Source of the DNA: Candidatus Jordarchaeia archaeon
Lineage (GTDB): Archaea > Asgardarchaeota > Jordiarchaeia > Jordiarchaeales > Jordiarchaeaceae
DNA length: 14,027 bases
Assembly: GCA_029856435.1 (NCBI GenBank)
Contig: JAHQXB010000161.1
Span: 1 to 14,027 of the forward strand
Direction of reading: 5' to 3'
Positions 1-14,027 of this stretch are shown here, piece by piece. Under the pieces are notes generated by a model that saw only the letters and a list, made by a program, of their open reading frames with translations, was not told the DNA's origin and ran no database searches. A program made the translations under genes and the position numbers. Position 1 is the stretch's first letter. Each line of letters begins with the position of its first letter.

Positions 1-126
1 GGTGGCACACCCCCAACTTCTAAGGTGGAATGGAATGAAGTGGGAGCCTAAAAAGGGCAACGAACAACAAACCTATGAGAACCTTAGAAGCAAGAATCTC
101 CCGGCTTCAGCCGTGGAGAGTGTCAA
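1..126 (+). mobile_element. Right end of an IS200/IS605-family (tnpB-carrying) insertion sequence; the element extends left of the window
   Basis: GAAT (94-97), then a hairpin TCTCC-CGGC-[TTCA]-GCCG-(T)-GGAGA (97-119), then terminal TCAA (123-126). This is the guide/hairpin/cleavage-site layout known for the IS608 right end (guide GAAT, cleavage TCAA). Confidence 0.85.
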
Positions 127-133
127 TGCTTAA
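2..133 (+). CDS. tnpB: C-terminal tail of TnpB (5'-truncated by the window; possibly frameshifted)
   Basis: Frame +2 reads VAHPQLLRWNGMKWEPKK..., stop at 131-133. Frame +3 from 54 reads RATNNKPMRTLEARISRLQPWRVS. Both resemble archaeal TnpB tails as I recall them and lie inside the IS right end. No RuvC motif is visible in the window. Confidence 0.5.
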   Translation: MAHPQLLRWNGMKWEPKKGNEQQTYENLRSKNLPASAVESVNA

Positions 134-405
134 GGATTGTCCACGCTAAATTAATGAATAAATTGAGCACACCTTCTGTAATAGTTTCAAAATGAGTAGA
201 TTTAGTCTGATGCTCCATTTCCCGAATAAAATTTCGGCAGAGGGTATATCTTATAGTCAATATTTGTGGATGGTTCTATAACTGTTTATAAGGTTATGGG
301 GGCGGGTAGGAGGCTTTGAATTTAGAGTTAATGTGTTTGGTGTAAGTTCCTGTAATGTTGGCCTATTTTTGATGGGGGGGTTGGTTCTAATCTCTGTTTA
401 ATGTT

Positions 406-470
406 CGAAAGTTTTATTAACTATAATATTATTGTCTTTTACTGTAATATATTGTTATTGACTGTAATAT
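406..470 (+). promoter_or_regulatory. Archaeal promoter (BRE CGAAAG 406-411, TATA TTTTATTA 412-419) with three phased direct repeats ACT(A/G)TAATAT, a probable operator
   Basis: Repeats at 420-429 (ACTATAATAT), 441-450 and 461-470 (ACTGTAATAT), spaced 21 and 20 bp, directly upstream of a wHTH gene. Confidence 0.55.
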
Positions 471-484
471 TTTGGTGTGTAAAA

Positions 485-808
485 TTGTGTGTTGAAAGCC
501 GCTCAGACGAGAGATTGAGCAAGTTGCAGAATCTAATGAGGGTGCTTCACTGTCCAACACGGTGGTTAATAATTGACTTCATAGGTGAAGGGGCTAAAAG
601 CACCAGGGAAATATATGAATATTTAATAGCTAACAATGAAAAACTAACACCCTCCGGACTGTATTACCACTTATCAGAATTAAAGAATGGGGAAATCATT
701 GAGGTCGCTGAATACAAGGAGGAAGGCGGTGGAGCTCCAGAAAAGGTTTGGAGACTAAAAAAGAAGAGGATAGTAATTGATTTACTAAAACCCAGAGGAG
801 ATGAGTAA
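485..808 (+). CDS. Winged-helix (ArsR-like) transcriptional regulator; probable TTG start at 485 rather than ATG 401
   Basis: LHCPTRWLIIDFI...STREIYEYL...TPSGLYYHLSELKNGEIIEV...EKVWRL fits a wHTH. The first 28 codons of the tracked ORF overlap the promoter and repeats. GGTG SD-like motif at 474-477 precedes TTG 485. Confidence 0.8.
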   Translation: MCVESRSDERLSKLQNLMRVLHCPTRWLIIDFIGEGAKSTREIYEYLIANNEKLTPSGLYYHLSELKNGEIIEVAEYKEEGGGAPEKVWRLKKKRIVIDLLKPRGDE

Positions 809-1016
809 AGTGTGCAGAATTGGAACAGGTAAGTTCCACGAAACGTTGGGTATATGTGGATGTTATAGTCCTTATGTGGAAACAGAATTTAAAGGAAGCC
901 TAGAAGACACCTTGACAAAAAAGGAAAGAATAGAGATTTTGAAGGATTATCGGAGAATCTTGGAAAAGGAGCTTGAAAAAGTGAATGAAGAAATAAAAAA
1001 ACTTGAAGAAGAATGA
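801..1016 (+). CDS. Small protein with an N-terminal CGC motif and a C-terminal coiled coil (DUF5320-like)
   Basis: TKKERIEILKDYRRILEKELEKVNEEIKKLEEE heptad pattern. Overlaps the upstream stop by 8 nt (ATGAGTAA), and the ABC ATPase starts 10 nt after its stop. Confidence 0.7.
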   Translation: MSKVCRIGTGKFHETLGICGCYSPYVETEFKGSLEDTLTKKERIEILKDYRRILEKELEKVNEEIKKLEEE

Positions 1017-1026
1017 AAGCAGGGGG

Positions 1027-1965
1027 ATGAATAGCATTTCGAGAAGTGTCATAGAGGTGGACAACCTCACCAAATATTATGGGGAACTGAGGGCTGTTGA
1101 CCACATAAGCTTCAAAGTGGAGGAAGGAAAAATCTTTGGCTTTCTCGGGCCAAACGGTGCGGGTAAGACAACCACTGTTAGAATGCTTACAGGAGTAATC
1201 AAACCGGATGAGGGGACTGCTCGAATAATGGGATACGATATTCTGAAGGAACCTATAAAAGCCAAAGAGGTTATGGGAATAGTTCCTGAAGCGTCAAATG
1301 CATATGTAGATCTCTCCGCTTGGAGCAACCTTATGCTCATGGGAGAACTCTATGGGATACCGAAAAAAGAAAGAGAACGCAAAGCCGAGGAACTGCTTCA
1401 GAAATTTGGTCTTCAAGAAAGGAAGAATGAGAAAGTAAAAAATTTCTCTAGGGGAATGAAACAGAGACTCCTAATTTGCATGGCGCTGATAAACAGCCCC
1501 CAAATCCTATTTCTGGACGAACCCACAACTGCACTTGATGTTCAGAGCGCTAGGATAATACGAGACATGCTACTTGACCTTAACAGGGGCGGCGCTACCA
1601 TTTTTTTAACCACTCACAATATGGAGGAGGCAAATCTACTGTGTGATGAAGTAGCTATAATTAACCAGGGCAAAATCGCAGCCATCGACAGTCCTGAAAG
1701 GCTAAGAACCAAAATTGGAAGACTGAACGCGGTGGAGGTTAGTTTTACTTCGTCTCCTAATATGGAAAAGTTAGCTGAAATACCTTCAGTAAGGGAGGTT
1801 AAAAAAATAGGGAACAAGGTTAGATTGTACACAAGCAGTCCCGGCCAAGTGATAACCCACCTAGCAGATTACACTAAAGAAAACAACGTACAAATAATAA
1901 CCCTTCAAACTCTTGCCCCAACACTAGAAGACATATTTATTATGCTCATAGAGGCAAGGAAGTGA
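1027..1965 (+). CDS. ABC-2-type (DrrA-like) exporter ATP-binding subunit
   Basis: Walker A GPNGAGKTT, signature FSRGMKQR, Walker B ILFLDEPT, H-loop TTHNMEEA, and a C-terminal extension ending PTLEDIF. Start placed at ATG 1027 (track start 1003 overlaps the upstream gene). Confidence 0.95.
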   Translation: MNSISRSVIEVDNLTKYYGELRAVDHISFKVEEGKIFGFLGPNGAGKTTTVRMLTGVIKPDEGTARIMGYDILKEPIKAKEVMGIVPEASNAYVDLSAWSNLMLMGELYGIPKKERERKAEELLQKFGLQERKNEKVKNFSRGMKQRLLICMALINSPQILFLDEPTTALDVQSARIIRDMLLDLNRGGATIFLTTHNMEEANLLCDEVAIINQGKIAAIDSPERLRTKIGRLNAVEVSFTSSPNMEKLAEIPSVREVKKIGNKVRLYTSSPGQVITHLADYTKENNVQIITLQTLAPTLEDIFIMLIEARK

Positions 1966-1971
1966 ATCAAA

Positions 1972-2727
1972 ATGACACTTAGTAGGGAATACACTAAGCA
2001 AATTAGACGGGCCTTTATACTTGCAAAAAAGGATATGCGCATATACTATTTTAAGGGTCCAGTTATCATCTTTGGAGTGTTAATCCCCCTATTCTTATTC
2101 TTAGCCTTTTCCATAGGAAGAAACATACCTATAAATTCGCTTGTGTCTGGCTTATTGGCAATGACTCTGTTCTTTACCGCAACAGCAGTTAGCCCAGTAA
2201 TCATACCTTGGGAAACCACCATGAGAACCCTTGAGAGACTAGTATCCACGCCAGTCACGCTATCAACAATAATACTAGGAAACATAATCGCCTCATTCAT
2301 CTTTGGAGTCATCATATCCGCGGTACCAATTATAGTAGGAATTATTATGGGAGCAACTATAGAAAATCCCCTAATTCTAATACTGGGCATAATAATCGCA
2401 GCACTATGCTTCTCCAGCATTGGAATACTACTCTCAACACCCCCATCATCCATGCCATCCACCATAATGATGCTCGCCTCATTATTAAAATTCCCCCTAA
2501 TATTTATCAGTGGAATCTTCATACCAGTAGAGCAAATGCCCGGTTGGGGACAGGCATTGGCAACGTTCTCACCACTCACCTACTTTACAGACCTAGCAAG
2601 ACACGCCACACAAGGAATAGGATACTTCCCAATACCCGTAGATATAGGAATACTCATGGCGTTCACCGCAGTCTTCCTCCTTACAGCAATAAAACTCCAT
2701 AAAAGAAACCTATCAAAAAGATTATAG
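1972..2727 (+). CDS. ABC-2-type exporter permease
   Basis: About six hydrophobic segments, E..MRTLERLVSTPV motif, FISGIFIPVEQMPGW and PLTYF motifs; 6 nt after the ATPase stop. Confidence 0.92.
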   Translation: MTLSREYTKQIRRAFILAKKDMRIYYFKGPVIIFGVLIPLFLFLAFSIGRNIPINSLVSGLLAMTLFFTATAVSPVIIPWETTMRTLERLVSTPVTLSTIILGNIIASFIFGVIISAVPIIVGIIMGATIENPLILILGIIIAALCFSSIGILLSTPPSSMPSTIMMLASLLKFPLIFISGIFIPVEQMPGWGQALATFSPLTYFTDLARHATQGIGYFPIPVDIGILMAFTAVFLLTAIKLHKRNLSKRL

Positions 2728-2866
2728 ACTTATTCCCAGTTACCCGTTCCTGTGCCCACAATTTAAGTGACGTCAACTGAAGTCAAAACAAATCTAGCAA
2801 GGATTAAGAAAAAAGAGGGGAAATCTACTGGAGGAAAACAAACAATTACAATTATTGTTAATCATC

Positions 2867-2901
2867 AAAAAAGAAAGGGGGAAATTTTAACTCTCTTTTT
2901 T
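2867..2901. terminator. Possible bidirectional oligo-T terminator region between the convergent ABC operon and acr3
   Basis: A6 tract at 2867-2872 (oligo-T on the minus strand) and CTCTC-T6 at 2891-2901 on the plus strand, partly complementary to each other. Confidence 0.3.
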
Positions 2902-4055
2902 CATCTAGTTATTTCCCTAGGTGCGGGGGTTATTTCCTTTTTGAAGAGTTTGTTTCTGAGCCAGTAGGAAACATTCACCAAGTTTATGAGTACTGGGACC
3001 TCTAGTAGTGGTCCTATAACTGCGGCGAATGCTTGACCTGAAGCTATGCCGAAGACTCCTATGGTTACCGCTATTGCCAGCTCGAAGTTATTGCTTGCAG
3101 CCGTGAAGGCTATGGTCGCCGTACTTTCATAGCTGAATCCCAGATGCCAAGACATCGCGTATGATACGAGGAACATTATGACGAAGTATAGAACTAGTGG
3201 AATTGCAATTCTCAGGACATCGTAGGGAAGCGAAATTATTTTTCCGCCTTGAAGCGAAAACATCATCACCACTGTGAAGAGTAGGCCTATAAGAGCAGTT
3301 GGAGCCAACTTCTTAACGAAATAGCCGTCGTACCATTCTTTTCCCCTCCTCCTTATTAGGGTGTATCTGGTTATCATGCCCGCAAATAGAGGTATGCCCA
3401 AGTAGATTATAACACCTTTAGCTATGTCAATAATGGATACGTTTACTGCTGCCGCTCCAGTCAGGCTCAGTATCCATGAAGGTACTCCCAAAAAGCCCAG
3501 AATCCAGCCTGATTCCGCAAGCCACGTCGGCGTCCCGGTAATTAATGAAGGCAACAGGGTGATGTATATGTAGGCTAGTATGGAGTACATTATCATCTGG
3601 AAAACCGAGTTTAGGGCAACTAAAACTGCGCAGAGTTCACTATCTCCTCTCGCAAGCTGGTTCCAAACAAGTACCATGGCTATGCAGCGAGCCAGCCCAA
3701 CAATTATGAGCCCTATACGGTACTCAGGCATGTCTGGTAGGAAAATCCACGCCAGTACAAACATCAATGCTGGACCAATGATCCAGTTTTGAACAAGGGA
3801 GACCGCGAAGGCCTTCTTAGCTCCTAGGAGTCTCGAGAGTTCCTCATATTTTACTCTGGCAAGGGGCGGGTACATCATCCATATGAGTCCAATAGCGATG
3901 GGCAGTGAAACAGTGTCTAGACGCAGTTCGTTGAGAAATCCAGAGATTTCAGGGAACATGGCACCTAGTAAGACACCTATGGCCATTGCTAGAAAAATCC
4001 ACAGGGTTAGAAACCGGTCTAGGAGTGAAAGCTTTTCGATACTCTTGTTGGACAT
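2901..4055 (-). CDS. acr3: ACR3-family arsenite efflux transporter
   Basis: [35 protein letters not shown] (conserved Cys124) and [11 protein letters not shown] (conserved Glu), [17 protein letters not shown] lies upstream. Confidence 0.95.
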
Positions 4056-4283
4056 GTTGATTTCTCACCTTTTGGGGGATTACCGTATTGATTTTTGGCT
4101 AATTCGCATACTTAATTTATCGATGAATGCAAATATAACGTTGCCACAGTAACTTGCAAATTGGGGTGTTTAAATTTAATGTTATGCCTATCCGCCATGT
4201 GCATAATCTTTATCTGAATCTTTTTAGTTGTGAAAGATGCCTATGCAACATAAATAAATTAATGGTCTTACTATGATAAACAA

Positions 4284-4323
4284 TTATATTTAAGATTATC
4301 GTCTCATATTGATATTTATCAAT
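4284..4323 (+). promoter_or_regulatory. TATA-like element (TTATATTT 4284-4291) and 7-2-7 inverted repeat ATTGATA-TT-TATCAAT (4308-4323), a candidate ArsR operator
   Basis: Perfect inverted repeat over the expected transcription start, 16 nt before the arsR ATG, in the acr3/arsR divergent intergenic region. Confidence 0.55.
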
Positions 4324-4339
4324 TTTAGGAAGTGAATCA

Positions 4340-4726
4340 ATGGAGCGTTTAGCACGCCTAATCGAAGAAGACGAGTGCTCAGCAAAATGCGAAAAATATG
4401 CAGATGAATTAAAGAAACTATCAGAGGAAATGGATAAAACCATACTATGTGAGTTTGGACCCAAGTTTTTTAAAGCCTTAGCGGATCATAATCGTCTAAA
4501 AATTTTGAAAATGCTGGCCGTTAGGGAGATGTGTGTTTGCGAATTAAATGTAGCCTTGGACATTTCTCAGGGAACAATATCGCACCACCTTAAAATTCTT
4601 CAAGAAGCCAAATTAATAAAAGGAAGGGTAAAAGGTAAATGGAATTATTACCGAGTCTACAACGAACAAATTGATAAATTCATCAAAAAAAGCGAACAAG
4701 TTTTAAAAAACATGCAAAAAACGTAA
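4340..4726 (+). CDS. arsR: ArsR/SmtB-family metalloregulatory repressor
   Basis: FKALADHNRLKIL, EMCVCEL (CxC metal-binding helix), SQGTISHHLKIL, GKWNYYR. Divergent from acr3. N-terminal extension carries extra cysteines (ECSAKC, LCEF). Confidence 0.9.
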   Translation: MERLARLIEEDECSAKCEKYADELKKLSEEMDKTILCEFGPKFFKALADHNRLKILKMLAVREMCVCELNVALDISQGTISHHLKILQEAKLIKGRVKGKWNYYRVYNEQIDKFIKKSEQVLKNMQKT

Positions 4727-4736
4727 ATTTTTGGAG

Positions 4737-5774
4737 TTATTTAATTTTGTCCATTTCTTCCATTATGCTTTCTAGGATTTGTTCTTGTGAGGGGGATGTT
4801 TTTGTGAATTTTAGAGTTCCATTAATAATTACGGCGGGTATTAGGGAGTTTTTCCCTGCCTCTATTAGGCCTTTTGAAACCATGGTTCCTGGGGGGCGGG
4901 CCTCTCCTTTTCTCCAGATTCTGAGTTCTATTTTTTGTTCTTCTCCTGACTGTTCAATTGCTTTTTTAACATTTTCCTCAGTCTCTGAGCATATTCCTGT
5001 TGGGGGATTGTCTAAAAGCAGTTCGATTAACAGTTTTCCGTAGGCTAGGGGAGGGATTCCGTAAAGCAGCCATTTTTCTGTTGTGTACTTGGTTTCGAGA
5101 ACTGTTTTAAGGAACTCTTTTTCCTGCGGCGTTAAGTCTCCTTTTACCAGTTTTACTTTGAAGTCGTTAATTATTTTAATGCAGGTGTTCTTGATGAACT
5201 CCTCTTTGGATAAGCTTTCTTTATACCTGTTTTTTATGCTTGTAATTATTCTGGGAAGCAGGTTTAGCCTGTTGGGAACTGTGAAATTTGTATCAAGGTA
5301 AACAACTCCCTGAAAAACGAGTACATCATAGTACCAGAATTGGGTTGCCTGCGAAACAATTTTCCCATCTTCAACTAGATAAAAGGGATCCTCATACATG
5401 CAAGGTACGCCATAGGATCTAACGGCTCTTATTATGGGACTATAAATTGCCGCATAAGTTTCCCGGATATTCTTGGGCAAATCAAAATTCTTCGTGTTGA
5501 TAATGAAGCTGAATATCAGCGTGTTTTCATCGACGTAGAAGCCGGGACCAAGGGTGTGCCTCCTAGCAAGCTCAATTCCATGCTTTTTGAGGACGTCTAT
5601 TTCCTCCTCCTCTAATGCGTCGTCACCAACGCTTAATGTCGGTTTACAACTCCAAAAGTGAATGGTGCTTGGCCCCAGAGAATTATGCACCTGAATCATG
5701 ATTGTTTCATCCATTGCAAATCCGACATGCGGGTTTAAGTGGTCATTAATTATCAGTCTAATTTCATCAGTCAT
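4737..5774 (-). CDS. Lipoate-protein ligase A (BPL/LplA/LipB)-like domain with degenerate active-site motifs, fused to a C-terminal thioredoxin-like domain
   Basis: GFAMDETI, PSTIHFW, LSVG, RRHTLGPGFYVD, DGKIVSQATQ, LTPQE...KYTTEKW follow the order of archaeal LplA motifs. The last ~100 aa (PPTGIC-SETEENVKKAI...IPAVIINGTLKF...PSQEQI) resemble small redox-active disulfide (MTH895-like) proteins. Confidence 0.75.
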   Translation of the reverse strand: MTDEIRLIINDHLNPHVGFAMDETIMIQVHNSLGPSTIHFWSCKPTLSVGDDALEEEEIDVLKKHGIELARRHTLGPGFYVDENTLIFSFIINTKNFDLPKNIRETYAAIYSPIIRAVRSYGVPCMYEDPFYLVEDGKIVSQATQFWYYDVLVFQGVVYLDTNFTVPNRLNLLPRIITSIKNRYKESLSKEEFIKNTCIKIINDFKVKLVKGDLTPQEKEFLKTVLETKYTTEKWLLYGIPPLAYGKLLIELLLDNPPTGICSETEENVKKAIEQSGEEQKIELRIWRKGEARPPGTMVSKGLIEAGKNSLIPAVIINGTLKFTKTSPSQEQILESIMEEMDKIK

Positions 5775-5797
5775 CTCTTGACTCCCATATCGTAATT

Positions 5798-6151
5798 TTA
5801 TTGAGACGGTAACTCCATATCCTTTGTGGTTTCTGATATTCTGCGTAGGTGTTCTAGTATAATTTCATCAACCAGCTTTAGAACGAGAAATATTCGCAGA
5901 TCCTTTACCTTATACTCTACTCTTTGCCCAATTTTTTTGTGCTCTAATATGTTGCAATCTTTTAGGATTTGAATGTGTTGGGAAACAGTAGATTGAGACT
6001 TATAAACGTGGGGCAAAATATCGCATTGGCAGCACTCACCACTCCTCAAAATATCTAGAATCTTCAACCTAGTTACGTCAGCCAAGGCTTTAAACAACTC
6101 AACCCTACTCTTATACAAAAAATCCTCCTTCTTCTCCAAACCTGACCACAT
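5798..6151 (-). CDS. Second ArsR/SmtB-family repressor with a CCxC motif
   Basis: LFKALADVTRLKIL, GECCQCDI, SQSTVSQHIQILK, GQRVEYKV. Confidence 0.88.
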   Translation of the reverse strand: MWSGLEKKEDFLYKSRVELFKALADVTRLKILDILRSGECCQCDILPHVYKSQSTVSQHIQILKDCNILEHKKIGQRVEYKVKDLRIFLVLKLVDEIILEHLRRISETTKDMELPSQ

Positions 6152-6192
6152 TGAAGATTCCTCATTTAAAATAATCCAAATGAGTTATCATG

Positions 6193-6774
6193 CTAAATTT
6201 GGATAACGTGAATCTTCTTCTCAATCTCCGCAGACTTTTCACTATCCAAATACGGGCAAGCGCGGGGAGAATTTTCCCCAGTTGCCAGCTTTATTGCAAA
6301 CCCGTAACATGTGGAAACTCCACACTCCCCACAATCCTTTTTGGGCAAAAATTTATTGAGTTCTATGGGGCTCAACTTAGTTTTACAACTCATCAACTCT
6401 GGAGATATCTTCCCGTGACGATTCACATAGATAGAAGCGCGATTCAAAAGATCCTTAACATATCTCAAAACGTTTTCGGCTTCTTCCCTATCCTTAAGAT
6501 TTGTAACAGTTATTTTCCCCGCACCAAAAATTGTGATTAGATGTTCCTGAAACATGAAGCTCATAGATTCTGACTGCTTATTATATGTGGCCTGGGGAAG
6601 GTAAAGGTAAAGGGCGGGAAGCAAATCATCCAGATTTTCACTAGTGGTTCCCACAACCCTTATCCTCTCAGAGCTTGTCAAACAGGGAAGAACTTCAGAT
6701 ATTTTAATCTCCTTCACTCTGGGGGGAATAAGTAAATTAATTAAGGAAGACCCCTTTTGCCCACCATCAACCAT
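6193..6774 (-). CDS. Fe-S-binding protein (COG4871-like): N-terminal PCL motif domain plus C-terminal putative Fe-S domain (PF04060-type)
   Basis: C-terminal LPKKDCGECGVSTCYGFAIKL...CPYL (CxxCxxxxC...C, as in the CdhE/RnfB N-terminal Fe-S domain); N-terminal VLPCL...RIRVV...LP.LYL. Start set at ATG 6774, about 7 nt after a GGAGG SD; the track gives GTG 6795. Confidence 0.8.
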   Translation of the reverse strand: MVDGGQKGSSLINLLIPPRVKEIKISEVLPCLTSSERIRVVGTTSENLDDLLPALYLYLPQATYNKQSESMSFMFQEHLITIFGAGKITVTNLKDREEAENVLRYVKDLLNRASIYVNRHGKISPELMSCKTKLSPIELNKFLPKKDCGECGVSTCYGFAIKLATGENSPRACPYLDSEKSAEIEKKIHVIQI

Positions 6775-6884
6775 AATCATATCCTCCATTGACACACGTA
6801 CCTAAACAACGGTATTTTTCTACCCACATTTCTAACCAGTTAAAAGATCATCAACTCCTACTACATTGAATATAGAAAAAAACA

Positions 6885-6896
6885 CATTTAAATATT
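6885..6896 (-). promoter_or_regulatory. TATA box (AATATTTAAATG) for the Fe-S/ArsR/LplA-like operon
   Basis: Reads CAATATTTAAATG on the minus strand ~110 nt upstream of ATG 6774. The same AATATTTAAAT core occurs near 7427 and 11517. Confidence 0.4.
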
Positions 6897-7076
6897 GCTA
6901 TATAATAATATACTAATATAACAGCATAACTTAAACCAAAAACAAAAAGATTGAACCAGCAACACAAAACGCCAAAAAAGAATTCTCATAGGTATAAGAT
7001 TCTGCAAATCCTAAACCTTAATTCAGTAGTATCTGAATACTAAGCACCTACAGGTAGAAGAGCCCCCCGTTTCAAA

Positions 7077-7355
7077 CTAATTGGGAATATTTTTTGATCT
7101 TAGTATGGATTCCCGTATCGCCTCATCCAAGATTTCTGGCTGGACATTTCTAACAAACTTTTTGGTTCCATTTATCACAACGCCTACATCTTTAATATTG
7201 TACTTTCTTGCTTCCTCAGAAAGAGAGGATTTCAAAATAAATTCAATATGGTCCCTGTATTTTAGGGAAGTAGTCCACACGCGGTCTAGAAATTCCAAAT
7301 AGTAGCAACCACATAACTCTATAGGAACAAAAATTTCTAATTTGATTTTCGACAT
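7077..7355 (-). CDS. Small thioredoxin-fold-like protein with a CxC (CGC) motif
   Basis: IKLEIFVPIELCGCYY (beta strand then Cys motif), EEARKYNIKDVGVVING (Trx-like). SD GAGG lies upstream. Confidence 0.65.
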   Translation of the reverse strand: MSKIKLEIFVPIELCGCYYLEFLDRVWTTSLKYRDHIEFILKSSLSEEARKYNIKDVGVVINGTKKFVRNVQPEILDEAIRESILRSKNIPN

Positions 7356-7422
7356 GATAATTCATCCTCGGTTTTAATTTTTCGTGGAGATGGGATTTTC
7401 ATCCCATTTATATATGTAAAAG

Positions 7423-7436
7423 TTTAAATATTTAAA
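7423..7436. promoter_or_regulatory. Perfect 14-bp palindrome TTTAAATATTTAAA, readable as a TATA box on both strands
   Basis: Seen directly. Preceded by a GTAAAAG BRE-like motif on plus; lies ~70 nt upstream of the Trx-like gene on minus. Confidence 0.45.
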
Positions 7437-7955
7437 TATATTGATAAATGGTTATATTATGATAAAAACGTGCTCCAACGTTCCCGAGGAACAGTAGGAC
7501 TACTTCAACAAGCAAACCAAAAACTGCAAAACAAAAACCGAACCAAAAACAAATTGCAACTAAACATAAAAACAAGAGACCGGCCAAAAAACAAAGACTC
7601 AAACATAGCACCTTCTCAGCACATGACTATTTTTAAAAAGAGCCTTCCACACAAAAATTCAAACCTCCCTATTCCAAGAATAAAGGCATTATGGGTAGTG
7701 CGAGCGAAGGATTATTCTAATAGGTAATATGTTTATATTAAAGAATAGCATAGATAAAAAAATTTAAATAGTATGCTTGTTAGACAAGATATATTGATTA
7801 ATGGCAATATGACGTTAATAGCGCCGATAATTTTCAAATTGATAAATATGAAACGATAATATTAAACACCATTAAAGTTCACAAATATACAAAAAGTAAC
7901 ACTCCGGAAGAAAACCCCAAAAAAAGGGGGTAAAGGGCTGGTAGGAGGTTTAAAA

Positions 7956-9410
7956 ATGGGTAGCACAATCCCCTCAATAGAAGTTTTAAAATCTACAATT
8001 GACAACAGATTCATTCGTTTCCTGTTAAGAAGACTAACCCGTAAATGTAGAATAGATGGAAAAAGCAGTTTAAACATCGCCCTAGAACTTTTCTCAGAAG
8101 CTCGAGAAAAAGCTTGCTTTACTTGCAGCCACATAACCCTACCCATTGTTCGGTGGGCTATAAGCAGAGGCGGCGCAGCATTTGGAGTTTCAGAAGAAGA
8201 TTTAAAAACCAGGTTCAAAGACCCCTATTGGCGCACGGGCCTCGTGGACGTAATTAGGGGTATAGCAAAATATGGTGTAAAAAAGCCCTTCGTTCCCGGA
8301 GCCCCCTTCCTTATTGTGTGGGACTACACCTACGCCTGCAACCTGAGATGCAAGCACTGCTACGCCTCAGCCGGAAAGCCCCTACCCGACGAATTCAGCG
8401 CTAGGGAAGCACTCAACACCGCTGATGAACTTGCCGACGCCGGAGTTACTGCTGTTGCATTTTCGGGAGGAGAACCCTTAATGCGGAAAGACCTATTCGA
8501 CACTATGAAGAGGCTGAGGGACAACGGAGTATTCACAGCTGTTGCAACAAACGGCACCCTCATAACTAGGGAGGTTGCTAAAAAACTTGCAGACCTCGGT
8601 GCGGGTTTTGTTCAGATAAGCCTAGATGGCGCAAGCGCCAAAACCCACGACAGTTTCCGCGGCGTGCCTGGAGCCTATGAGAGAACACTCCAGGCTATTA
8701 AAAATTGTGTTGAAAACGGCCTCTTCGTTGAGATCTCGACCACTGCTACAAAAACGAATTATGAAGAAGTTCCCAAGATCGCTGAATTATGTGAGGAGAT
8801 TGGTGTAGACTGGTACATGATTTTTAACTTCGTTCCAACCGGTAGAGGATACTTCATGATAGAAAACGACCTAACACCCGAAGATAGGGAAGAACTTCTC
8901 AAAATACTGTGGAACAGATTGAAAAGTGGTGGTAAACTACAGTACTTATCCACCGCACCCCAATTTGCCAGAGTGGCTCTACAAGAAGAGAAAGATTCGG
9001 AAAAGAAGATTATACCGGGACACTTCTACAACCCCACACTAATGGGGCAACTCACTAACTTGGGCGACTTCATTGGTGGTTGTGGGGCGGGTAGAATGTA
9101 TGCGGCCCTTGAGCCTGAGGGCACTCTACAGCCATGTGTCTTTCTACCAATAAAACTGGGAAACCTCAGAGAGGAGAGGTTTGAAGAGATATGGGATAAC
9201 CACCCCATTCTTCAAACGCTTAGAAACAGGGATAAGTTAAAGGGAAGATGTAAAACCTGCGAGTACAGAGATGTCTGCGGAGGATGCAGAGCAAGAGCCT
9301 ACGGATATTTCGGTGACGTCACCGCCCCAGACCCGGGATGTATATACAATAAGGATGTTTTCTACAAACTCAAGACTGAATTTGAGGAGGAAAAGGTGGC
9401 TGAGATTTAG
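7956..9410 (+). CDS. Radical SAM protein with SPASM domain and long N-terminal extension
   Basis: CNLRCKHC, FSGGEPL, ATNGT, QISLDG; SPASM cysteines CGAG...PC...CKTC...CGGC...PGC. N-terminal extension of ~115 aa with CFTC. SD GGAGGT at 7944-7949. Confidence 0.92.
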   Translation: MGSTIPSIEVLKSTIDNRFIRFLLRRLTRKCRIDGKSSLNIALELFSEAREKACFTCSHITLPIVRWAISRGGAAFGVSEEDLKTRFKDPYWRTGLVDVIRGIAKYGVKKPFVPGAPFLIVWDYTYACNLRCKHCYASAGKPLPDEFSAREALNTADELADAGVTAVAFSGGEPLMRKDLFDTMKRLRDNGVFTAVATNGTLITREVAKKLADLGAGFVQISLDGASAKTHDSFRGVPGAYERTLQAIKNCVENGLFVEISTTATKTNYEEVPKIAELCEEIGVDWYMIFNFVPTGRGYFMIENDLTPEDREELLKILWNRLKSGGKLQYLSTAPQFARVALQEEKDSEKKIIPGHFYNPTLMGQLTNLGDFIGGCGAGRMYAALEPEGTLQPCVFLPIKLGNLREERFEEIWDNHPILQTLRNRDKLKGRCKTCEYRDVCGGCRARAYGYFGDVTAPDPGCIYNKDVFYKLKTEFEEEKVAEI

Positions 9411-9426
9411 GAGGGATGTGGTCTGT

Positions 9427-10818
9427 ATGCGTGTCTTGTTTGTTTTTCCGCCATCTGTTTCAGCTATTCTCAACATTCTTGGCACTACCTCCCCACCTCT
9501 TGGGCTTGCGTATCTAGCCTCTTCGCTTGAGAGAGCGGGTGTGAATGTCAGAATTATTGATGCGCAGGCTCTAAACTTGGGCTTTGGAGAAATCGAACGA
9601 GAGATAAGAGTTTGGAAACCCGATGTTGTCGGTGTCACAGGTGCCACGCCAGCTTTCTTTGATGCACTCAGGGTTTTGGAGATAGCTAAAAATTATGGTG
9701 CCAAAACTGTGGTGGGTGGTCCTCACTTCTCGTTTACAGATGTTGAAACTCTTGAAGGCTACCCTTATGTGGACTATGTTGTGAGAGGTGAGGGTGAAGA
9801 AACGGTTGTGGAGCTTATAAAGGCTCTTGAGGGAAGAGGTGAAGTTTCGGAGATATTAGGCTTAACGTACAGGGACGGAGAAAATGTTCGAAGAAATCAG
9901 GATAGGCCGCTCATTAAAAATATTGACAGTATTCCCTTTCCCGCCTTCCACCTTCTACCCATGAACAAGTACACATTCGGCGAGTACCATTACGCAACCG
10001 TTATGACAAGCCGAGGTTGCCCGTACGGGTGTGTTTTTTGCGCCTCATCAAAACTATTCGGTAAAAGGTGGAGGGGCAGAAGCCCAGAGAATGTGGCAGA
10101 TGAGCTGGAAAAACTTACTGAAAGCTACCGTGTTAGAAACATTGAGTTTCTCGACGATACATTCACCCTCAACCAGAGGCGGGCGGAAAAGATCTGCGAC
10201 GAAATAATTAAGAGGGGACTGGACATAGTTTGGAATTGCTCCTCCAGGGTAAACACCATCAGCCACAGTTTACTTGAAAAAATGAAGAGGGCAGGCTGTA
10301 ACTCCATATACTACGGCGTGGAGTCCGGCTCCCAAGAAATACTGGACCGTATGAAGAAGGGAACCACATTAGACCAGATAATAAGGGCATTTAAAATAAC
10401 CAAACAAGTGGGTATGGAGATAATAGGTTCATTCATAATCGGCTTCCCGGGGGAAACCATAAACACCATTAAAAAAACTATTAGTTTCGCAAAGTTTCTA
10501 AAACCGGACTACGCCCAATTCACTATATGCACCCCATACCCTGGAACAGAACTCTTCCAAATCATTGAAAACACCGATAGTATGCAGCTTTTAACCAAGG
10601 ATTGGAGCGAGTACGACGCCTTAAAACCGGTTTTTACGATAAACGACGGCACTTATCCTTCACCATCAGAACTTATAAAGTGGGTGAAGAAAGCCTACTT
10701 GAATTTCTATGTTTCACTGAGCTTTCTGTTTCAACAACTTAAAAAGAAGCGCTTCATTGTTTGGAGAAAGGTTCTAAACGCGTTTAAAAATTATATAAAA
10801 GGAAATATTAGGTTCTGA
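9427..10818 (+). CDS. B12-binding-domain radical SAM protein (class B methyltransferase-like)
   Basis: RVLFVFPP...PPLGLAYLASSLE...V.IIDAQ, GGPHFS, VVRGEGEET, TSRGCPYGCVFC, FLDDTF, YGVESGS, FIIGFPGET, TPYPGTEL. True start is probably ATG 9427, 16 nt after the upstream stop; the tracked start at 9271 overlaps the previous gene. Confidence 0.92.
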   Translation: MRVLFVFPPSVSAILNILGTTSPPLGLAYLASSLERAGVNVRIIDAQALNLGFGEIEREIRVWKPDVVGVTGATPAFFDALRVLEIAKNYGAKTVVGGPHFSFTDVETLEGYPYVDYVVRGEGEETVVELIKALEGRGEVSEILGLTYRDGENVRRNQDRPLIKNIDSIPFPAFHLLPMNKYTFGEYHYATVMTSRGCPYGCVFCASSKLFGKRWRGRSPENVADELEKLTESYRVRNIEFLDDTFTLNQRRAEKICDEIIKRGLDIVWNCSSRVNTISHSLLEKMKRAGCNSIYYGVESGSQEILDRMKKGTTLDQIIRAFKITKQVGMEIIGSFIIGFPGETINTIKKTISFAKFLKPDYAQFTICTPYPGTELFQIIENTDSMQLLTKDWSEYDALKPVFTINDGTYPSPSELIKWVKKAYLNFYVSLSFLFQQLKKKRFIVWRKVLNAFKNYIKGNIRF

Positions 10819-11253
10819 GAGTGTAGAAGCAGTACCTCGATCTCAACTCGAATCTCTTAAAGCAAGACATAAAACAGTAATGCTATAAAATTTGTTTTTA
10901 GGAAAGTTTTGCAGCTTTGCCTTTTTCCTTATGGATGCGAATCAAGTGTTTTGCCAAATTCTTCTCTGACAGTCTTGCGGCCTTAAGTTAAATTTTCAAG
11001 AAGGAAAAGATACTCAGGGCTGCTTAAATGGATATAACTGAGAAGGGAGAAATGCTTCAAACTGAGAATAGATTTCGGGGAAAAGACCTTTTGAAGAGTA
11101 TTTTTAACGAATCGTGACACTTGACGTGAATTACCTGAATAGAAGAAGAAAGTGAACTCTAATTTCTACAATTTGAGTCTGCGCCATTTTAGGGCGGTTT
11201 ATGTATAAAAGCATATTTTTAATTGTCCATTTAATACGAGTTTATTTTGATCA

Positions 11254-11412
11254 TTAACAGCATCCACCACTGGAGCCACCGGAAGGTAAAATTTTTTTAA
11301 ATTCATTTTTCCAGCACTCGGTACACAGCCAAATTTTTCCTAAACTGCGATGTGTGCCGCAAAGCAGACTCACATTTTCGCCACTTTTGCCACAGATACC
11401 ACACTTATCCAT
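11254..11412 (-). CDS. 52-aa Cys-rich protein: CxxC...CxxC zinc-finger-like core and C-terminal GGSSGGCC
   Basis: MDKCGICGKSGENVSLLCGTHRSLGKIWLCTECWKNEFKKILPSGGSSGGCC. GGTGA SD 6 nt before ATG 11412 and a BRE/TATA upstream. Confidence 0.75.
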   Translation of the reverse strand: MDKCGICGKSGENVSLLCGTHRSLGKIWLCTECWKNEFKKILPSGGSSGGCC

Positions 11413-11464
11413 TTTTTTCACCATCTTCAGAGTTATATCGCTATACATCAATATAACGATTTAT

Positions 11465-11482
11465 TATTTAAACCTTTTTTCA
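11465..11482 (-). promoter_or_regulatory. BRE + TATA (GAAAAAAGG-TTTAAATA) for the Cys-rich small gene
   Basis: Consensus-like archaeal promoter on the minus strand; predicted start near 11442. Confidence 0.55.
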
Positions 11483-11511
11483 ACAATGAATTTGTTAACA
11501 ATTGATTTTTG

Positions 11512-11534
11512 TCCGAAATATTTAAATGTTTAAA
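11512..11534 (+). promoter_or_regulatory. BRE + TATA (CCGAAATA-TTTAAATG) for the BASS/Acr3-like operon; near-palindrome TTTAAATGTTTAAA
   Basis: Seen directly, ~100 nt upstream of ATG 11634. Confidence 0.45.
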
Positions 11535-11551
11535 AAGGTATGTTAATTGCC

Positions 11552-11591
11552 TTATATCGTTATATGACTATATGGTTATATAGCTTTATAG
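11552..11591. repeat. Five imperfect tandem 8-mers (TTATATCG TTATATGA CTATATGG TTATATAG CTTTATAG)
   Basis: Period-8 pattern read directly; followed by the 12-bp palindrome TCTGAATTCAGA (11601-11612). Confidence 0.55.
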
Positions 11592-11633
11592 TGTGAATCT
11601 TCTGAATTCAGATTAAATAATAAATATAGGAAT

Positions 11634-12809
11634 ATGGTGGGAATGATTTACAAATTCGCTGATTCCGTTAGGAGGAGATACGCATATCTGATTGTTTCTG
11701 CTCTCATTCTCGGAGTAGTAATTGGTTACCTTATGTTTACGCCCTGGGACATAATTAAGGATTACACCCCACCCTTCTACAAAAATGTTATCGAATACTT
11801 TACACCAAGCCTTCCTGGCGAAATATTGGAGAGATATACTAACCCGTTGGTAATAATTATGATTGCCCCAATGGGGTTCACAATAACTTTTCGTAGTTTC
11901 GGTGGGGCGTTAAAAGATGTTAAGGGCTTTTGTCTTGGTTTAGCGGTAAATCTTTTAGTGGGGCCAATACTCTGTTGGGGCCTCTCCTCAATATTTCTAT
12001 TGGTGTTTATGCCTTCAACCCTCTCAAACTTTACTCTCTCAATCCTACCACTACTACAGTATAATCCAGTTCTTTTTATAACGAATTTTGTAAATCAAGT
12101 TAATAATTTGACGCAGATTGCCACAGGTCTGGTTTTGATAGGTACTGTTCCCGCTGCGGGTATGGCCATTGTTTGGACGGGGGTGTTGGAGGGCGATGTT
12201 CCCCTCGCGATTGTTATAAGTGCTGGCACTATGATTATTGCCCCCTTTCTCATTCCCTTACTAATGGTTTGGTTGGCGGGGGCTTTTGTAACAATTGATG
12301 CTCTTCAAATGTTTATTAACTTGTTGTACACTGTTCTATTACCAATTTTGGGAGGAATGCTTCTTAGAGAGGTTCTCGGAAGAAAGAAGGATGTAGGGAA
12401 GTATCTACCGCTTTGTACAGTGATCTCTGCCGTTTCAGCTATTTTTCTAATGTTCGGTTCAATTAACACGGAGGTGCCAGTTTTACTTAAAAACATGTCC
12501 TTAATACTGCCGCTTATAGTGTCTATTGTTTTAATTTTTCCAATCCTGTTCTTTAGCGCTTACGTTTTATCAAGCAAACTCTTTACGTTTAAAAAAACTA
12601 TCGCATTAACCTATTCCTCTGGGATGAAAAGCCTTCCAGTTGCTCTTGGAATAGCCACCACATCGTTTAAGGGCTTAGTTCCCCTACCAGTAGCTGTCGG
12701 CTTTGTATTTCAAATGTTAACCGCCGTATTTTTCTACCAATTACTCAAAGGAAGGAAACAAGGGGTAGAAGAGCAATTTAAAGCTACAGAGGAGGAAACA
12801 GTTGGATGA
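11634..12809 (+). CDS. BASS/Acr3-superfamily (bile acid:sodium symporter-like) secondary transporter
   Basis: IAPMGFTI, NLLVGPILCWGL, GTVPAAGMAIVWTGVLEGD, PILGGMLLR, SGMKSLPVALGIA, FQML. About 10 hydrophobic segments. Confidence 0.85.
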   Translation: MVGMIYKFADSVRRRYAYLIVSALILGVVIGYLMFTPWDIIKDYTPPFYKNVIEYFTPSLPGEILERYTNPLVIIMIAPMGFTITFRSFGGALKDVKGFCLGLAVNLLVGPILCWGLSSIFLLVFMPSTLSNFTLSILPLLQYNPVLFITNFVNQVNNLTQIATGLVLIGTVPAAGMAIVWTGVLEGDVPLAIVISAGTMIIAPFLIPLLMVWLAGAFVTIDALQMFINLLYTVLLPILGGMLLREVLGRKKDVGKYLPLCTVISAVSAIFLMFGSINTEVPVLLKNMSLILPLIVSIVLIFPILFFSAYVLSSKLFTFKKTIALTYSSGMKSLPVALGIATTSFKGLVPLPVAVGFVFQMLTAVFFYQLLKGRKQGVEEQFKATEEETVG

Positions 12810-12856
12810 TTCTTAGAATTAAAATATTTCAAATTAATTTGTTGAAAAGATAAAAG

Positions 12857-12872
12857 GTTAAATTGATTTAAC
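12857..12872. promoter_or_regulatory. 7-2-7 inverted repeat GTTAAAT-TG-ATTTAAC upstream of the YunC-like gene
   Basis: Perfect inverted repeat in the 120-nt intergenic gap; a second palindrome CAAATTAATTTG lies at 12830-12841. The AT-rich context lowers significance. Confidence 0.3.
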
Positions 12873-12929
12873 ATGTTGGTTAAGAGAATTATTCTAACCG
12901 GTTATTAAAGAATCGGAGGTGTAATGTGA

Positions 12930-13241
12930 ATGTTTTGGAACATCGAGTTAAAATCAATAGAATTGGAAAACGGCACAGCACTGGGATTAAGTGTTGGAAA
13001 CCCGCAGAAGCCGGAGAAGGCGATGATAATAATTCTAGTTGGTAAGAAGGGTTTGATAGTTTGCAGAAACTTTGATATTAAGGCTATGGAAGAGCGGGGA
13101 ATAGCCGCCGCCAGAGTTCAGGGGATATCTTCCTTTGAAGAGGCCTTAAAAACAAACATAGAGTCTTTTACAACCAAGGCTAAAGAACTGGGTATTACTC
13201 TCGGTATGACTGGCAGAGAAGCATTAGCAAAGTTCCTTTAA
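12930..13241 (+). CDS. YunC/DUF1805-family protein
   Basis: KGLIVC..FD...MEERGIAAARVQGI..FEEAL...IES.T..AKELGI..GMTGREAL matches the family pattern. SD GGAGGTG upstream. Confidence 0.85.
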   Translation: MFWNIELKSIELENGTALGLSVGNPQKPEKAMIIILVGKKGLIVCRNFDIKAMEERGIAAARVQGISSFEEALKTNIESFTTKAKELGITLGMTGREALAKFL

Positions 13242-13254
13242 TGAAGGTGTGAAA

Positions 13255-13617
13255 ATGGATAAAGATGAAGAAATAAAAAAGAGTCTTGAATTTTTCAAGG
13301 AGGAATTCGGCAAGGTACTAGATCCCGTTGCTTTCATCGAGGAGAAAAACGCTGAGCTTTGTAAAACATTTCTAAAACTCCACGAAATGACAGTGAACGA
13401 TGGTAAAATTTCTAAGAGGTATAAGTTGCTTATGCACGCTGCTGTAACCTCTGCTCTACACGACTTTGAAGCTACAGTTATGCACTTAACAGGAGCCATA
13501 AGAGCAGGAGCTACGGAAGATGAACTCTTGGAAACAGCCTTCACAATAATTCCCGTCGCTGGAATGCCATCATTTGCAGTGTTTCTCTCCGCATGGAAAA
13601 AAGTCACCAGAACCTAG
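13255..13617 (+). CDS. Carboxymuconolactone decarboxylase (CMD)/AhpD-like protein lacking CxxC
   Basis: DGKISKRYKLLM.AAV...MHL.GAIRAGATEDEL.E......VAGMPS. Start is either GTG 13249 or ATG 13255 (SD GGTG favours 13255). Confidence 0.85.
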   Translation: MDKDEEIKKSLEFFKEEFGKVLDPVAFIEEKNAELCKTFLKLHEMTVNDGKISKRYKLLMHAAVTSALHDFEATVMHLTGAIRAGATEDELLETAFTIIPVAGMPSFAVFLSAWKKVTRT

Positions 13618-13901
13618 AAAATCTAGTCGACGCTCTTACCTTTTTGTGTTGTACAATCCGACTATGTTCATGAGCATTGGCATAATAAAAACACTCAAAC
13701 AAACCTATTAAGAAAGTTGGGCGTAAAAAGTTTTTAGTGCAGTTTTGGGCACAGTTAACCTGGAGTCACCAATCATGGGTAGATTTATAAGCTCCTCTTC
13801 TTTTGTAAATAGCTACGGTGATTTGTTTGGATTCATCTTCCTAACTTATCAAGGAAGCCCTGGAGAAGCCGAACGATACTAGGGTTAAGCAGAAGCTTAA
13901 G

Positions 13902-14027
13902 ATGTGGTCTGGCAAACTCCCCTGCCCCAACTGCGGCTCCCCCTCACGCAAAAACGGCACAAGACAGTACAGGGACGCCTCAACCACACAGGAGTACAAG
14001 TGCAAGAGCTGCGGCCTCCGCTACACC
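13902..14027 (+). CDS. N-terminus (3'-truncated by the window) of a zinc-ribbon protein typical of IS1/IS6-type transposases or some archaeal integrases
   Basis: MWSGKLPCPNCGSPSRKNGTRQYRDASTTQEYKCKSCGLRYT: CPxCGS...KNG...QxYxCxxCGxxY. The sequence is visibly more C-rich here than upstream. Confidence 0.65.
   Translation, partial: MWSGKLPCPNCGSPSRKNGTRQYRDASTTQEYKCKSCGLRYT

Follow-up and report, generated by a model that had tools for sequence, protein, structure and literature searches.

An LplA-fold domain without ligase residues, fused to a thioredoxin-type domain, in an ArsR/ACR3 locus of an Asgard archaeon

We analyzed a 14,027-nucleotide (nt) stretch of DNA from a Candidatus Jordarchaeia archaeon of the Asgard group (assembly GCA_029856435.1, contig JAHQXB010000161.1, positions 1 to 14,027), hereafter the window. 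Its reverse strand carries a gene for a two-domain protein in which a lipoate-ligase (LplA) fold lacking the residues needed for ligation is joined to a thioredoxin fold with a single cysteine. The gene is the last of an operon that also encodes an iron-sulfur (Fe-S) protein and an ArsR-type regulator (ArsR3), and it lies near a second regulator gene (ArsR2) and a gene for the arsenite efflux transporter ACR3. An earlier note, written from the sequence alone, had read the product as a pseudo-ligase or repurposed ligase carrying an MTH895-type redox domain. The gene and the parts of its product are as follows.

4737..5774 (-): LplA-fold::thioredoxin-fold fusion gene (product P0001), clade B of the family, 345 amino acids (aa); identified from Pfam, homologues and a tree
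5049..5774 (-): N-terminal domain, aa 1-242, LplA/LipB catalytic fold without ligase residues (PF21948, Foldseek, TIGR00545)
5646..5648 (-): Cys43, found in clade B only (5/5 members), Ser in clade A
5529..5564 (-): degenerate lipoate/adenylate-binding loop RRHTLGPGFYVD, aa 71-82, in place of RRxxGGGAVYHD
5400..5402 (-): Cys125, invariant in 14/14 members of the Asgard clade, absent in the wider fusion family
5352..5363 (-): KIVS, aa 138-141, with Ile139 at the catalytic-lysine position (profile alignments)
5304..5312 (-): QGV, aa 155-157, replacing HG(T) (profile alignments)
4737..5048 (-): C-terminal domain, aa 243-345 plus the stop codon, MTH895/Thioredoxin_3-type thioredoxin fold (structure model, Foldseek, PF13192, HHalign)
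4989..5006 (-): PPTGIC, aa 257-262, changed from PPCxxC; T259 is invariant and C262 nearly invariant in the whole fusion family
4833..4841 (-): IPA, aa 312-314, at the position of the thioredoxin-fold cis-proline loop; Pro313 is invariant

Translation of 4737-5774 (-) gives 345 codons without an internal stop. A Shine-Dalgarno-like GGGAG is located 9-13 nt upstream of the ATG, which follows the ArsR3 stop codon by 23 nt. The motifs fall where the earlier note had placed them, with RRHTLGPGFYVD at aa 71-82, KIVS at 138-141, QGV at 155-157, and TGIC at 259-262.

The N-terminal domain has the fold of a lipoate ligase. The Pfam family LplA-B_cat (PF21948) matched aa 14-192 with an E value of 2.8e-20 (73.6 bits against a cut-off of 27), and a Foldseek search with the full-length AlphaFold2 (AF2) model returned the LplA of Thermoplasma acidophilum (2c8m/2art) as the best match, with an E value of ~1e-17 (1.3e-17 for 2c8m). 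On the NCBIfam equivalog model for LplA (TIGR00545), the protein scored 65.8 bits, far below the cut-off of 280, whereas a genuine LplA encoded on contig C17 of the same genome reached 283.4 bits. The sites of divergence were located by aligning a profile, built from P0001 and 12 close homologues, to four solved LplAs (8cri, 5iby, 1vqz, and 6jom). The segment RRHTLGPGFYVD aligned to RRLSGGGAVYHD of 8cri and RRDTGGGAIYLD of 6jom; in all four alignments, the GGG loop of the ligases stood opposite (L/D)-G-P, and only RR, one G, and D are left of RRxxGGGxVxHD. Within the Asgard clade R71, R72, and G76 are invariant. Ile139 fell at the position of E. coli K133 and of K138 in the Mycoplasma hyopneumoniae ligase (Mhp-Lpl) in four of four alignments, and this column reads I/V/T/P/A across the Asgard clade. 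Opposite the histidine of HG(T) is Gln155, and QGV belongs to the invariant block SQxxQFWYYDVLVFQGV. Neither adenylation nor transfer of lipoate proceeds without the lysine, according to the study of the M. hyopneumoniae enzyme (6jom), which cites E. coli work (PMC7186572). Because the catalytic lysine and the glycine-rich loop are both missing, these alignments demonstrate that P0001 is not a lipoate ligase. The pseudo-ligase reading thus holds in structural terms: the LplA fold is kept, and the catalytic lysine, the GGG loop, and the histidine are replaced.

The lipoyl tunnel may nevertheless survive the loss of the chemistry. The residues that line the tunnel of Mhp-Lpl, among them Y40, have been listed (PMC7186572), and the P0001 residues aligned with them (W41, T74, S89, T144, and V153) are small or hydrophobic, as in real ligases. 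Trp41 aligns with Y40, and Cys43 lies two residues further on the same strand; its side chain should therefore face as the tunnel residue does, a geometry that we infer. Cys125 is located 14 residues ahead of the former lysine position.

In the C-terminal domain, the full-length AF2 model is confident, with a predicted local distance difference test (pLDDT) score above 90 over the last 100 residues. Residues 243-345 modelled alone from 26 sequences gave a pLDDT of 93 and the topology beta-alpha-beta-alpha-beta-beta-alpha, and Foldseek matched this model to thioredoxins at probability 1.0. PF13192 (Thioredoxin_3) was matched by 20 of the 26 family C-terminal domains, that of P0001 on its own remaining under the cut-off (19.8 versus 24.8). 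HHalign paired the C-domain profile with a free-standing PPCHRC protein of the MTH895 type from a Bathyarchaeial ars cluster (97% probability, E value of 4.7e-11) and set T259 on the first and C262 on the second cysteine. Since the profile alignment lays PPTxxC on PPCHRC, the earlier reading of the domain as MTH895-like, with CxxC changed to TxxC, is correct. Threonine replaces the nucleophilic first cysteine and no CxxC redox pair is present, leaving a monothiol; Cys262 is the only cysteine of the domain. Pro313 would be the cis-proline, judging from the alignment to MTH895-type proteins. An NG turn is present as well, as is a conserved insert of ~20 residues (RxWxRGxGxPPG...AxKxS), in which the basic residues R285, R/K288-289, and K308, adjoining the active-site helix, are conserved. 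The thioredoxin domain occupies the place where an LplB-type accessory domain is normally found, as the note had suggested; P0001 has no match to PF10437 (Lip_prot_lig_C), and the idea that the C-terminal domain is a diverged LplB was ruled out by the thioredoxin-type topology and the profile matches.

The fusion is widespread. Twelve close full-length homologues, 41-91% identical, were found in Freyarchaeota, Jordarchaeum, Lokiarchaeia, and Hodarchaeota assemblies, together with many more distant ones. An exhaustive profile search returned 17 clusters at an E value of 1e-30 or lower, mostly archaeal and one bearing the name Bathyarchaeia, with further full-length fusions beyond, and the nearest ESM Atlas cluster has 154 members, of which 94% are archaeal. 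Databases label family proteins generically, for example as "lipoate-protein ligase family protein." Between the window gene and its ortholog in the congener genome G121, the ratio of nonsynonymous to synonymous substitution rates (dN/dS) is 0.116 in the ligase-like domain and 0.118 in the thioredoxin domain, at a dS of 0.38. Across the Asgard clade, at 41-91% identity, ~90 columns are invariant, including the rewritten active-site strands. With dN/dS at ~0.12 in both domains and ~90 invariant columns, the gene is not decaying, and these comparisons demonstrate a real and stable two-domain protein under purifying selection. A scan of 400 genomes of the phylum, in which the best five candidates per genome were scored so that the counts are lower bounds, matched at least 5 genomes, 4 of them in the genus of the window. 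The sole copy outside the genus among these matches (G397:C41:31861-32891) is interrupted by 4-5 stop codons and is a pseudogene.

In a maximum-likelihood tree, the Asgard clade is supported at 100/100, clade B, which includes the window gene, at 100/99, and clade A at 99/99. Three distant members (P0026, P0028, and P0031) keep the canonical RRxSGGGAVY, G-K-x-S-G, and HG(S/T)LL motifs, and intermediate members have kept the catalytic lysine and lost the glycine loop. Because the distant fusions retain a canonical site, the dead site is derived, and the thioredoxin domain first joined an active-looking ligase; active-looking ligases would thus appear to have exchanged the LplB-type domain for a thioredoxin-type one.

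One gene order recurs in clade A and in every more distant member: DUF5714, degenerate fusion, and LplA with intact motifs. This set was seen in Lokiarchaeia, Hodarchaeota, Jordarchaeia, Bathyarchaeia, and further metagenome contigs. The degenerate fusion directly adjoins an active-looking LplA at all 8 of 8 loci outside clade B, the genes often overlapping or nearly so, and the Asgard LplA partners carry a Lip_prot_lig_C domain of their own. Around the set recur ArsR-type regulators, DsrE/DsrE/DsrH, DGC proteins, GcvH or a DGC-GcvH fusion, free-standing Thioredoxin_3 proteins, ArsP, and ACR3. In NCBIfam, DUF5714 has a match in MbdU, a metal-binding double selenoprotein (E value of 6e-38). The set is present in the window genome itself, on contig C17, as LplA (696-1763), clade-A fusion (1763-2824), and DUF5714 (2793-3494), followed by genes for an 86-aa protein, DsrE, DsrE, DsrH, ArsR, and ferritin. 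The DUF5714 protein at C17 2793-3494 (-) matches the N-terminal half of the MbdU model and has the pattern WGVCGAGAG...CC. The window fusion is a sister paralog, of clade B, that was relocated to an FeS-ArsR-fusion operon with ArsR and ACR3 as neighbors. The earlier note had overlooked this paralog status, the home gene set and its copy in the same genome, the distant members with intact sites, and the two cysteines Cys125 and Cys43.

The genes around the window copy are these.

2901..4055 (-): ACR3 arsenite efflux transporter (TIGR00832, 429.3 bits against a cut-off of 282.8)
4340..4726 (+): ArsR2, MCVCE motif, convergent with the fusion gene and divergent from ACR3 (Pfam/NCBIfam)
5798..6151 (-): ArsR3, 117 aa, ECCQCD motif, directly upstream of the fusion gene in its operon (HTH_5, E value of 2.5e-13; NF033788, 77.9 against a cut-off of 55)
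6193..6795 (-): Fe-S protein with a C-terminal PF04060 domain, first gene of the FeS-ArsR3-fusion unit (Pfam)
7077..7355 (-): 92-aa CGC protein, paralog of the 86-aa protein in the clade-A locus

Four clade-B loci (the window, L002, L003, and G121) have the same order of Fe-S protein (PF04060), ArsR, fusion, convergent ArsR, and divergent ACR3, so that two ArsR genes and ACR3 are present at 4 of 4. The MCVCE motif of ArsR2 and the ECCQCD motif of ArsR3 presumably sit where the classical ELCVCD As(III) site lies. No LplA adjoins the fusion gene in the window or at any of the four loci. The 92-aa CGC protein is 45% identical to the 86-aa protein encoded ahead of DUF5714 at C17 3644-3904 (-); because the two are paralogous, the B locus seems to be a copy of the A locus that has been rearranged. 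The 92-aa protein also resembles, if weakly, the second half of MTH895-type domains. A diverged DUF5714 was considered as the identity of the upstream Fe-S protein and rejected, as there was neither BLASTP similarity nor a DUF5714 Pfam match.

The wider island is variable. In the congener G121, a single 30.5-kb contig carries, in order, the B locus, a toxin-antitoxin pair, TauE, DGC genes, a second toxin-antitoxin pair, and LplA/clade-A fusion/DUF5714; its DGC cassette has six DGC genes, including a DGC-GcvH fusion, plus a ferredoxin (Fer4). In the closed congener genome G117, ACR3, a radical S-adenosylmethionine (SAM) gene, and the DGC/GcvH cassette are present, and both fusion paralogs are absent, as are the ligase set, DsrEFH, the Fe-S protein, and the B12 radical-SAM gene. 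The fusion proteins are accordingly accessory modules of a variable island. The reduced island of G117 (L045/L046, G117:C1:622000-637000) comprises ArsR, a duplicated ABC transporter, ACR3, a SPASM radical-SAM protein, a DGC cassette of five DGC genes with DGC-GcvH and ferredoxin, the 86-aa protein, ArsR, and ferritin. In G121, the toxin-antitoxin pairs (L043 1608-2262 and 8988-9700, on G121:C94) are of the VapBC type and MazE/PIN and separate three island modules; L002 also has one pair. Their position between modules suggests a modular, mobile assembly of the island.

The lipoate-ligase fold is much expanded in the window genome, which has 12 LplA-B_cat genes (on C17, C137, C35, C25, C145, C16, C36, C38, C2, C101, and the window) and just three GcvH genes, the latter located on other contigs. 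Several of these paralogs are ~370 aa long, with RKITGFG-type motifs and LplB-like C termini.

Lipoyl dithiols are a classic target of arsenite in cells, and As(III) prefers three-sulfur sites and the dihydrolipoyl dithiol. We propose a model in which the dead ligase domain would serve as a reader or holder of a lipoyl arm, taking either protein-bound lipoyl-lysine or free lipoate, and would present the dithiol or dithiolane to protein thiols, namely, Cys262 of the thioredoxin domain, Cys125, and, in clade B, the tunnel residue Cys43. One protein thiolate and the two lipoyl sulfurs would then form a three-sulfur As(III) site, at which As(III) could be taken off arsenic-blocked lipoyl groups or put onto them and handed towards ACR3; resolving lipoyl mixed disulfides would be an alternative task. 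Arsenite, acting on ArsR3, would switch the operon on. That the dead domain holds the lipoyl or dihydrolipoyl arm while C262, C125, and C43 exchange As(III) or disulfides with it is the reading we favor, tentatively and at somewhat less than an even chance. More ambitiously, the protein could be the adaptor of a lipoic-acid-based arsenic-handling system in anaerobic archaea, which grips the lipoyl arm of a carrier, completes the three-sulfur As(III) site, and passes arsenite to ACR3; we consider this doubtful. The functions suggested earlier (a protein that binds or repairs lipoyl groups or arsenic-dithiol adducts, or that ligates a different substrate) would likewise fit the context.

Several observations weigh against the lipoyl-holding model. 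In CxxC proteins, the second cysteine, the one remaining here, is normally buried. Cys125 and Cys43 are missing in the wider family, so the ancestral role of the fusion must have another basis. In the full-length AF2 model, the ligase-like domain has a moderate pLDDT of 50-75. One locus with the fusion (L029) is without any ars genes. No DGC gene was found in the window genome, so the link between the fusion and the DGC/GcvH cassette comes from the congener G121; G117 runs the ACR3 and DGC/GcvH core with neither paralog, and the fusion is thus dispensable for that core. Finally, where ArsR-type regulators neighbor DsrE and lipoyl-carrier genes, their signal can be sulfane sulfur instead of arsenic (PMC12423496), and DsrE proteins, lipoyl carriers, and ArsR-type sulfane-sulfur sensors associate in sHdr systems (PMC6067878, PMC11094781, PMC12423496). 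A role in sulfur rather than arsenic metabolism is possible for the wider fusion family, although clade B is always found beside ACR3. A complex prediction with the family alignment and the GcvH domain of the island DGC-GcvH scored 0.00, which counts neither way on binding.

An alternative that we consider rather unlikely, if still serious, is that the protein is a noncatalytic partner of a real ligase: a subunit that assists it or lends it specificity, a helper of the LplB kind, or a scaffold that binds LplA or the acceptor and steers lipoylation of special carriers, the window copy being an arsenic-induced version. The association with an active-looking LplA at all eight loci outside clade B is what such a partner would show, and at L029 the neighboring LplA is only 250 aa long and has no accessory domain. 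T. acidophilum LplA requires LplB in trans for adenylation (PMC7186572), and P0026, P0028, and P0031, in which the same thioredoxin domain is attached to an intact ligase domain, indicate that this domain can replace the LplB type. On the other hand, neither the window copy nor any of the four clade-B loci has an LplA beside the fusion, the Asgard partners already possess Lip_prot_lig_C, and a mere scaffold would leave the near-invariant T-x-x-C and the invariant active-site-strand residues unexplained.

The protein could also be a redox enzyme in its own right, in which Cys262 attacks arsenate, a peroxide, or a persulfide and a dihydrolipoyl arm in the dead pocket acts as the reductant; in the arsenate case, it would be a lipoyl-dependent reductase filling the role of ArsC. 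No arsenate reductase of the LMWP type or the ArsC/Spx type was found in the 97.8%-complete window genome, which has ACR3. The TxxC motif lies within a thioredoxin fold in a peroxiredoxin-like Thr-x-x-Cys setting, the conserved basic residues R285, R/K288-289, and K308 are near the active-site helix, and the Fe-S and ferredoxin genes of the island could re-reduce the system. However, P0001 matched neither arsenate reductase nor peroxiredoxin families in Pfam or NCBIfam, AhpC-TSA and Redoxin included, and PPTxxC does not have the PxxxTxxC spacing of peroxiredoxins. Organisms of anoxic sediment, moreover, face mostly As(III) and may need no reductase. We regard this explanation as improbable.

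Cys125 raises the further idea of a cysteine acyltransferase of the LipM/LipL type, in which a lipoyl or octanoyl thioester on this residue would allow ATP-free transfer between carriers. The fold is that of LplA and LipB, aa 10-112 give weak matches to the NCBIfam models of LipL and octanoyl-GcvH transferase, and Cys125, invariant in the Asgard clade, precedes the former lysine by 14 residues; LipL itself works through an essential Cys150 acyl-enzyme intermediate (bioRxiv 10.1101/419234). The lysine of the Cys/Lys dyad is missing, however, since Ile139 stands in the same column as the LplA lysine. The matched segment leaves out the region of Cys125, which is also absent from the wider fusion family, and we give this possibility little credence. 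The 283-aa paralog on contig C25 was tried as a LipM/LipL reference for Cys125 and discarded because it scores as LplA-type, not LipM, by NCBIfam and PDB.

A ligase for another carboxylic acid, or one with a lysine-independent mechanism, would account for the extreme conservation of the rewritten active-site strands, which fits a new ligand, and for the retention of hydrophobic residues aligned with the AMP contacts. It is very improbable given that characterized LplAs can perform neither step without the lysine (PMC7186572), which is I/V/T/P/A here, and that the glycine loop is broken by a proline. A functionless, decaying relic, which the lost catalytic residues, the stop codons of the G397 copy, and the absence of the fusion from G117 might bring to mind, can practically be dismissed, being contradicted by a dN/dS of 0.12 in both domains, the ~90 invariant columns, a frame intact in all close relatives, and an operon position conserved in L002, L003, and G121.

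Comparison with known systems shows what is shared and what is not. With LplAs, both the two-part LplA/LplB of T. acidophilum (2c8m, 2art, and 3r07) and bacterial enzymes (8cri, 5iby, and 6jom), P0001 has in common the catalytic fold, the motif order, and the landmarks RR, W41, T74, D82, and KY..W; it differs in the changes of Lys to Ile or another apolar residue, GGG to L/D-G-P, and His to Gln and in having a thioredoxin fold for the LplB-type domain. Small proteins of the MTH895/ArsE type (Thioredoxin_3, TIGR00412) are common in ars operons beside ArsP permeases, and free-standing MTH895-type copies are present in the related islands. The C-terminal domain resembles them in its fold, in having PP ahead of the active-site helix, and in its proline loop and NG turn, whereas it is a monothiol (first Cys changed to Thr), carries the ~20-residue insert, and is fused to a ligase-like domain. 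The metallochaperone ArsD (3mwh) is similar in that a thioredoxin fold without redox CxxC chemistry uses cysteine thiolates to pass As(III) to efflux. It ranked fourth among the Foldseek matches of the C-terminal domain (E value of 6.7e-4), with a score no better than that of ordinary thioredoxins, and P0001 lacks the Cys12-Cys13-Cys18 triad, an ArsA partner, and an ArsD Pfam match. With the LipM/LipL/LipB acyltransferases it shares the fold but not the dyad lysine, and the conserved Cys125 of its catalytic domain is a candidate counterpart of their catalytic cysteine. The sHdr-LbpA system of sulfur oxidation has LplA-like ligases of its own, along with sulfur carriers of the DsrE type and ArsR-type sensors of sulfane sulfur (PMC6067878, PMC10332631, PMC11094781, PMC12423496). 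There, as here, a GcvH-like lipoyl carrier outside central metabolism is clustered with its own ligase, DsrE/DsrH, and ArsR-type regulators. In the loci described here, by contrast, there are no Hdr-like genes; DGC domains, DUF5714, and ACR3/ArsP are found instead, and the fusion of a dead ligase with a thioredoxin domain has no counterpart in sHdr-LbpA systems.

Our literature searches returned nothing on the fusion, as the earlier note had anticipated, and nothing on the three-gene set or on lipoate ligases with an ars operon or Acr3. Searches on MTH895 with arsenic and on the DGC domain with arsenic likewise gave nothing on the fusion or the gene set, and a search for DUF5714 found no publication mentioning it. 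We know of no system that protects, repairs, or exploits lipoyl dithiols against arsenite. What is new here is an LplA-fold pseudoenzyme with a new partner domain, of which the window copy is one lineage-specific paralog. The gene ties a lipoate-recognizing fold without ligase chemistry, together with a thiol domain, to an Asgard ArsR/ACR3 island, and its relatives accompany lipoyl carriers, an active-looking ligase, and a protein related to a metal-binding selenoprotein. If the lipoyl-holding mechanism were true, it would offer a testable entry into lipoate-dependent arsenic defense and a clear example of a ligase turned into a reader domain; were the adaptor role to hold as well, lipoate would gain a new job, and there would be a new class of pseudoenzyme. 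The replacement of LplB by a thioredoxin-type domain in active-looking ligases also bears on archaeal lipoylation.

The intergenic regions of the window contain repeated words. TATTGATWWAT-like words were observed 11 times, compared to 2.4 expected, and the 15-mer TATATTGATWAATGG and the palindrome ATTGATATTTATCAAT occur, within the genome, in the window only. The perfect palindrome ATTGATATTTATCAAT is located in the divergent spacer between ACR3 and ArsR2; the two exact copies of TATATTGATWAATGG in the genome both lie between the 92-aa gene and a radical-SAM gene. The words at 4308-4323, 7437-7451, 7790-7804, 7838-7853, and 11441-11455 are candidate ArsR operators. We do not claim co-regulation through a shared operator, since the one copy in the FeS-ArsR3-fusion promoter is degenerate and such counts are raised by spacers rich in AT.

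At the end of the contig, an open GC-rich frame at 13851-14027 (+) encodes a zinc-ribbon fragment (CPNCG...CKSCG). A transposase gene or another gene of a mobile element may begin here, which would explain the break of the assembly inside the island. Ahead of it, at 11634-12809 (+) and 12930-13617 (+), are genes for a 391-aa ACR3/BASS-like transporter that scores far under the ACR3 cut-off, a DUF1805 protein, and a CMD-family protein without cysteines. The same trio is found at the far end of the island on a Jordarchaeia-like metagenome contig (L006 13790-15774).

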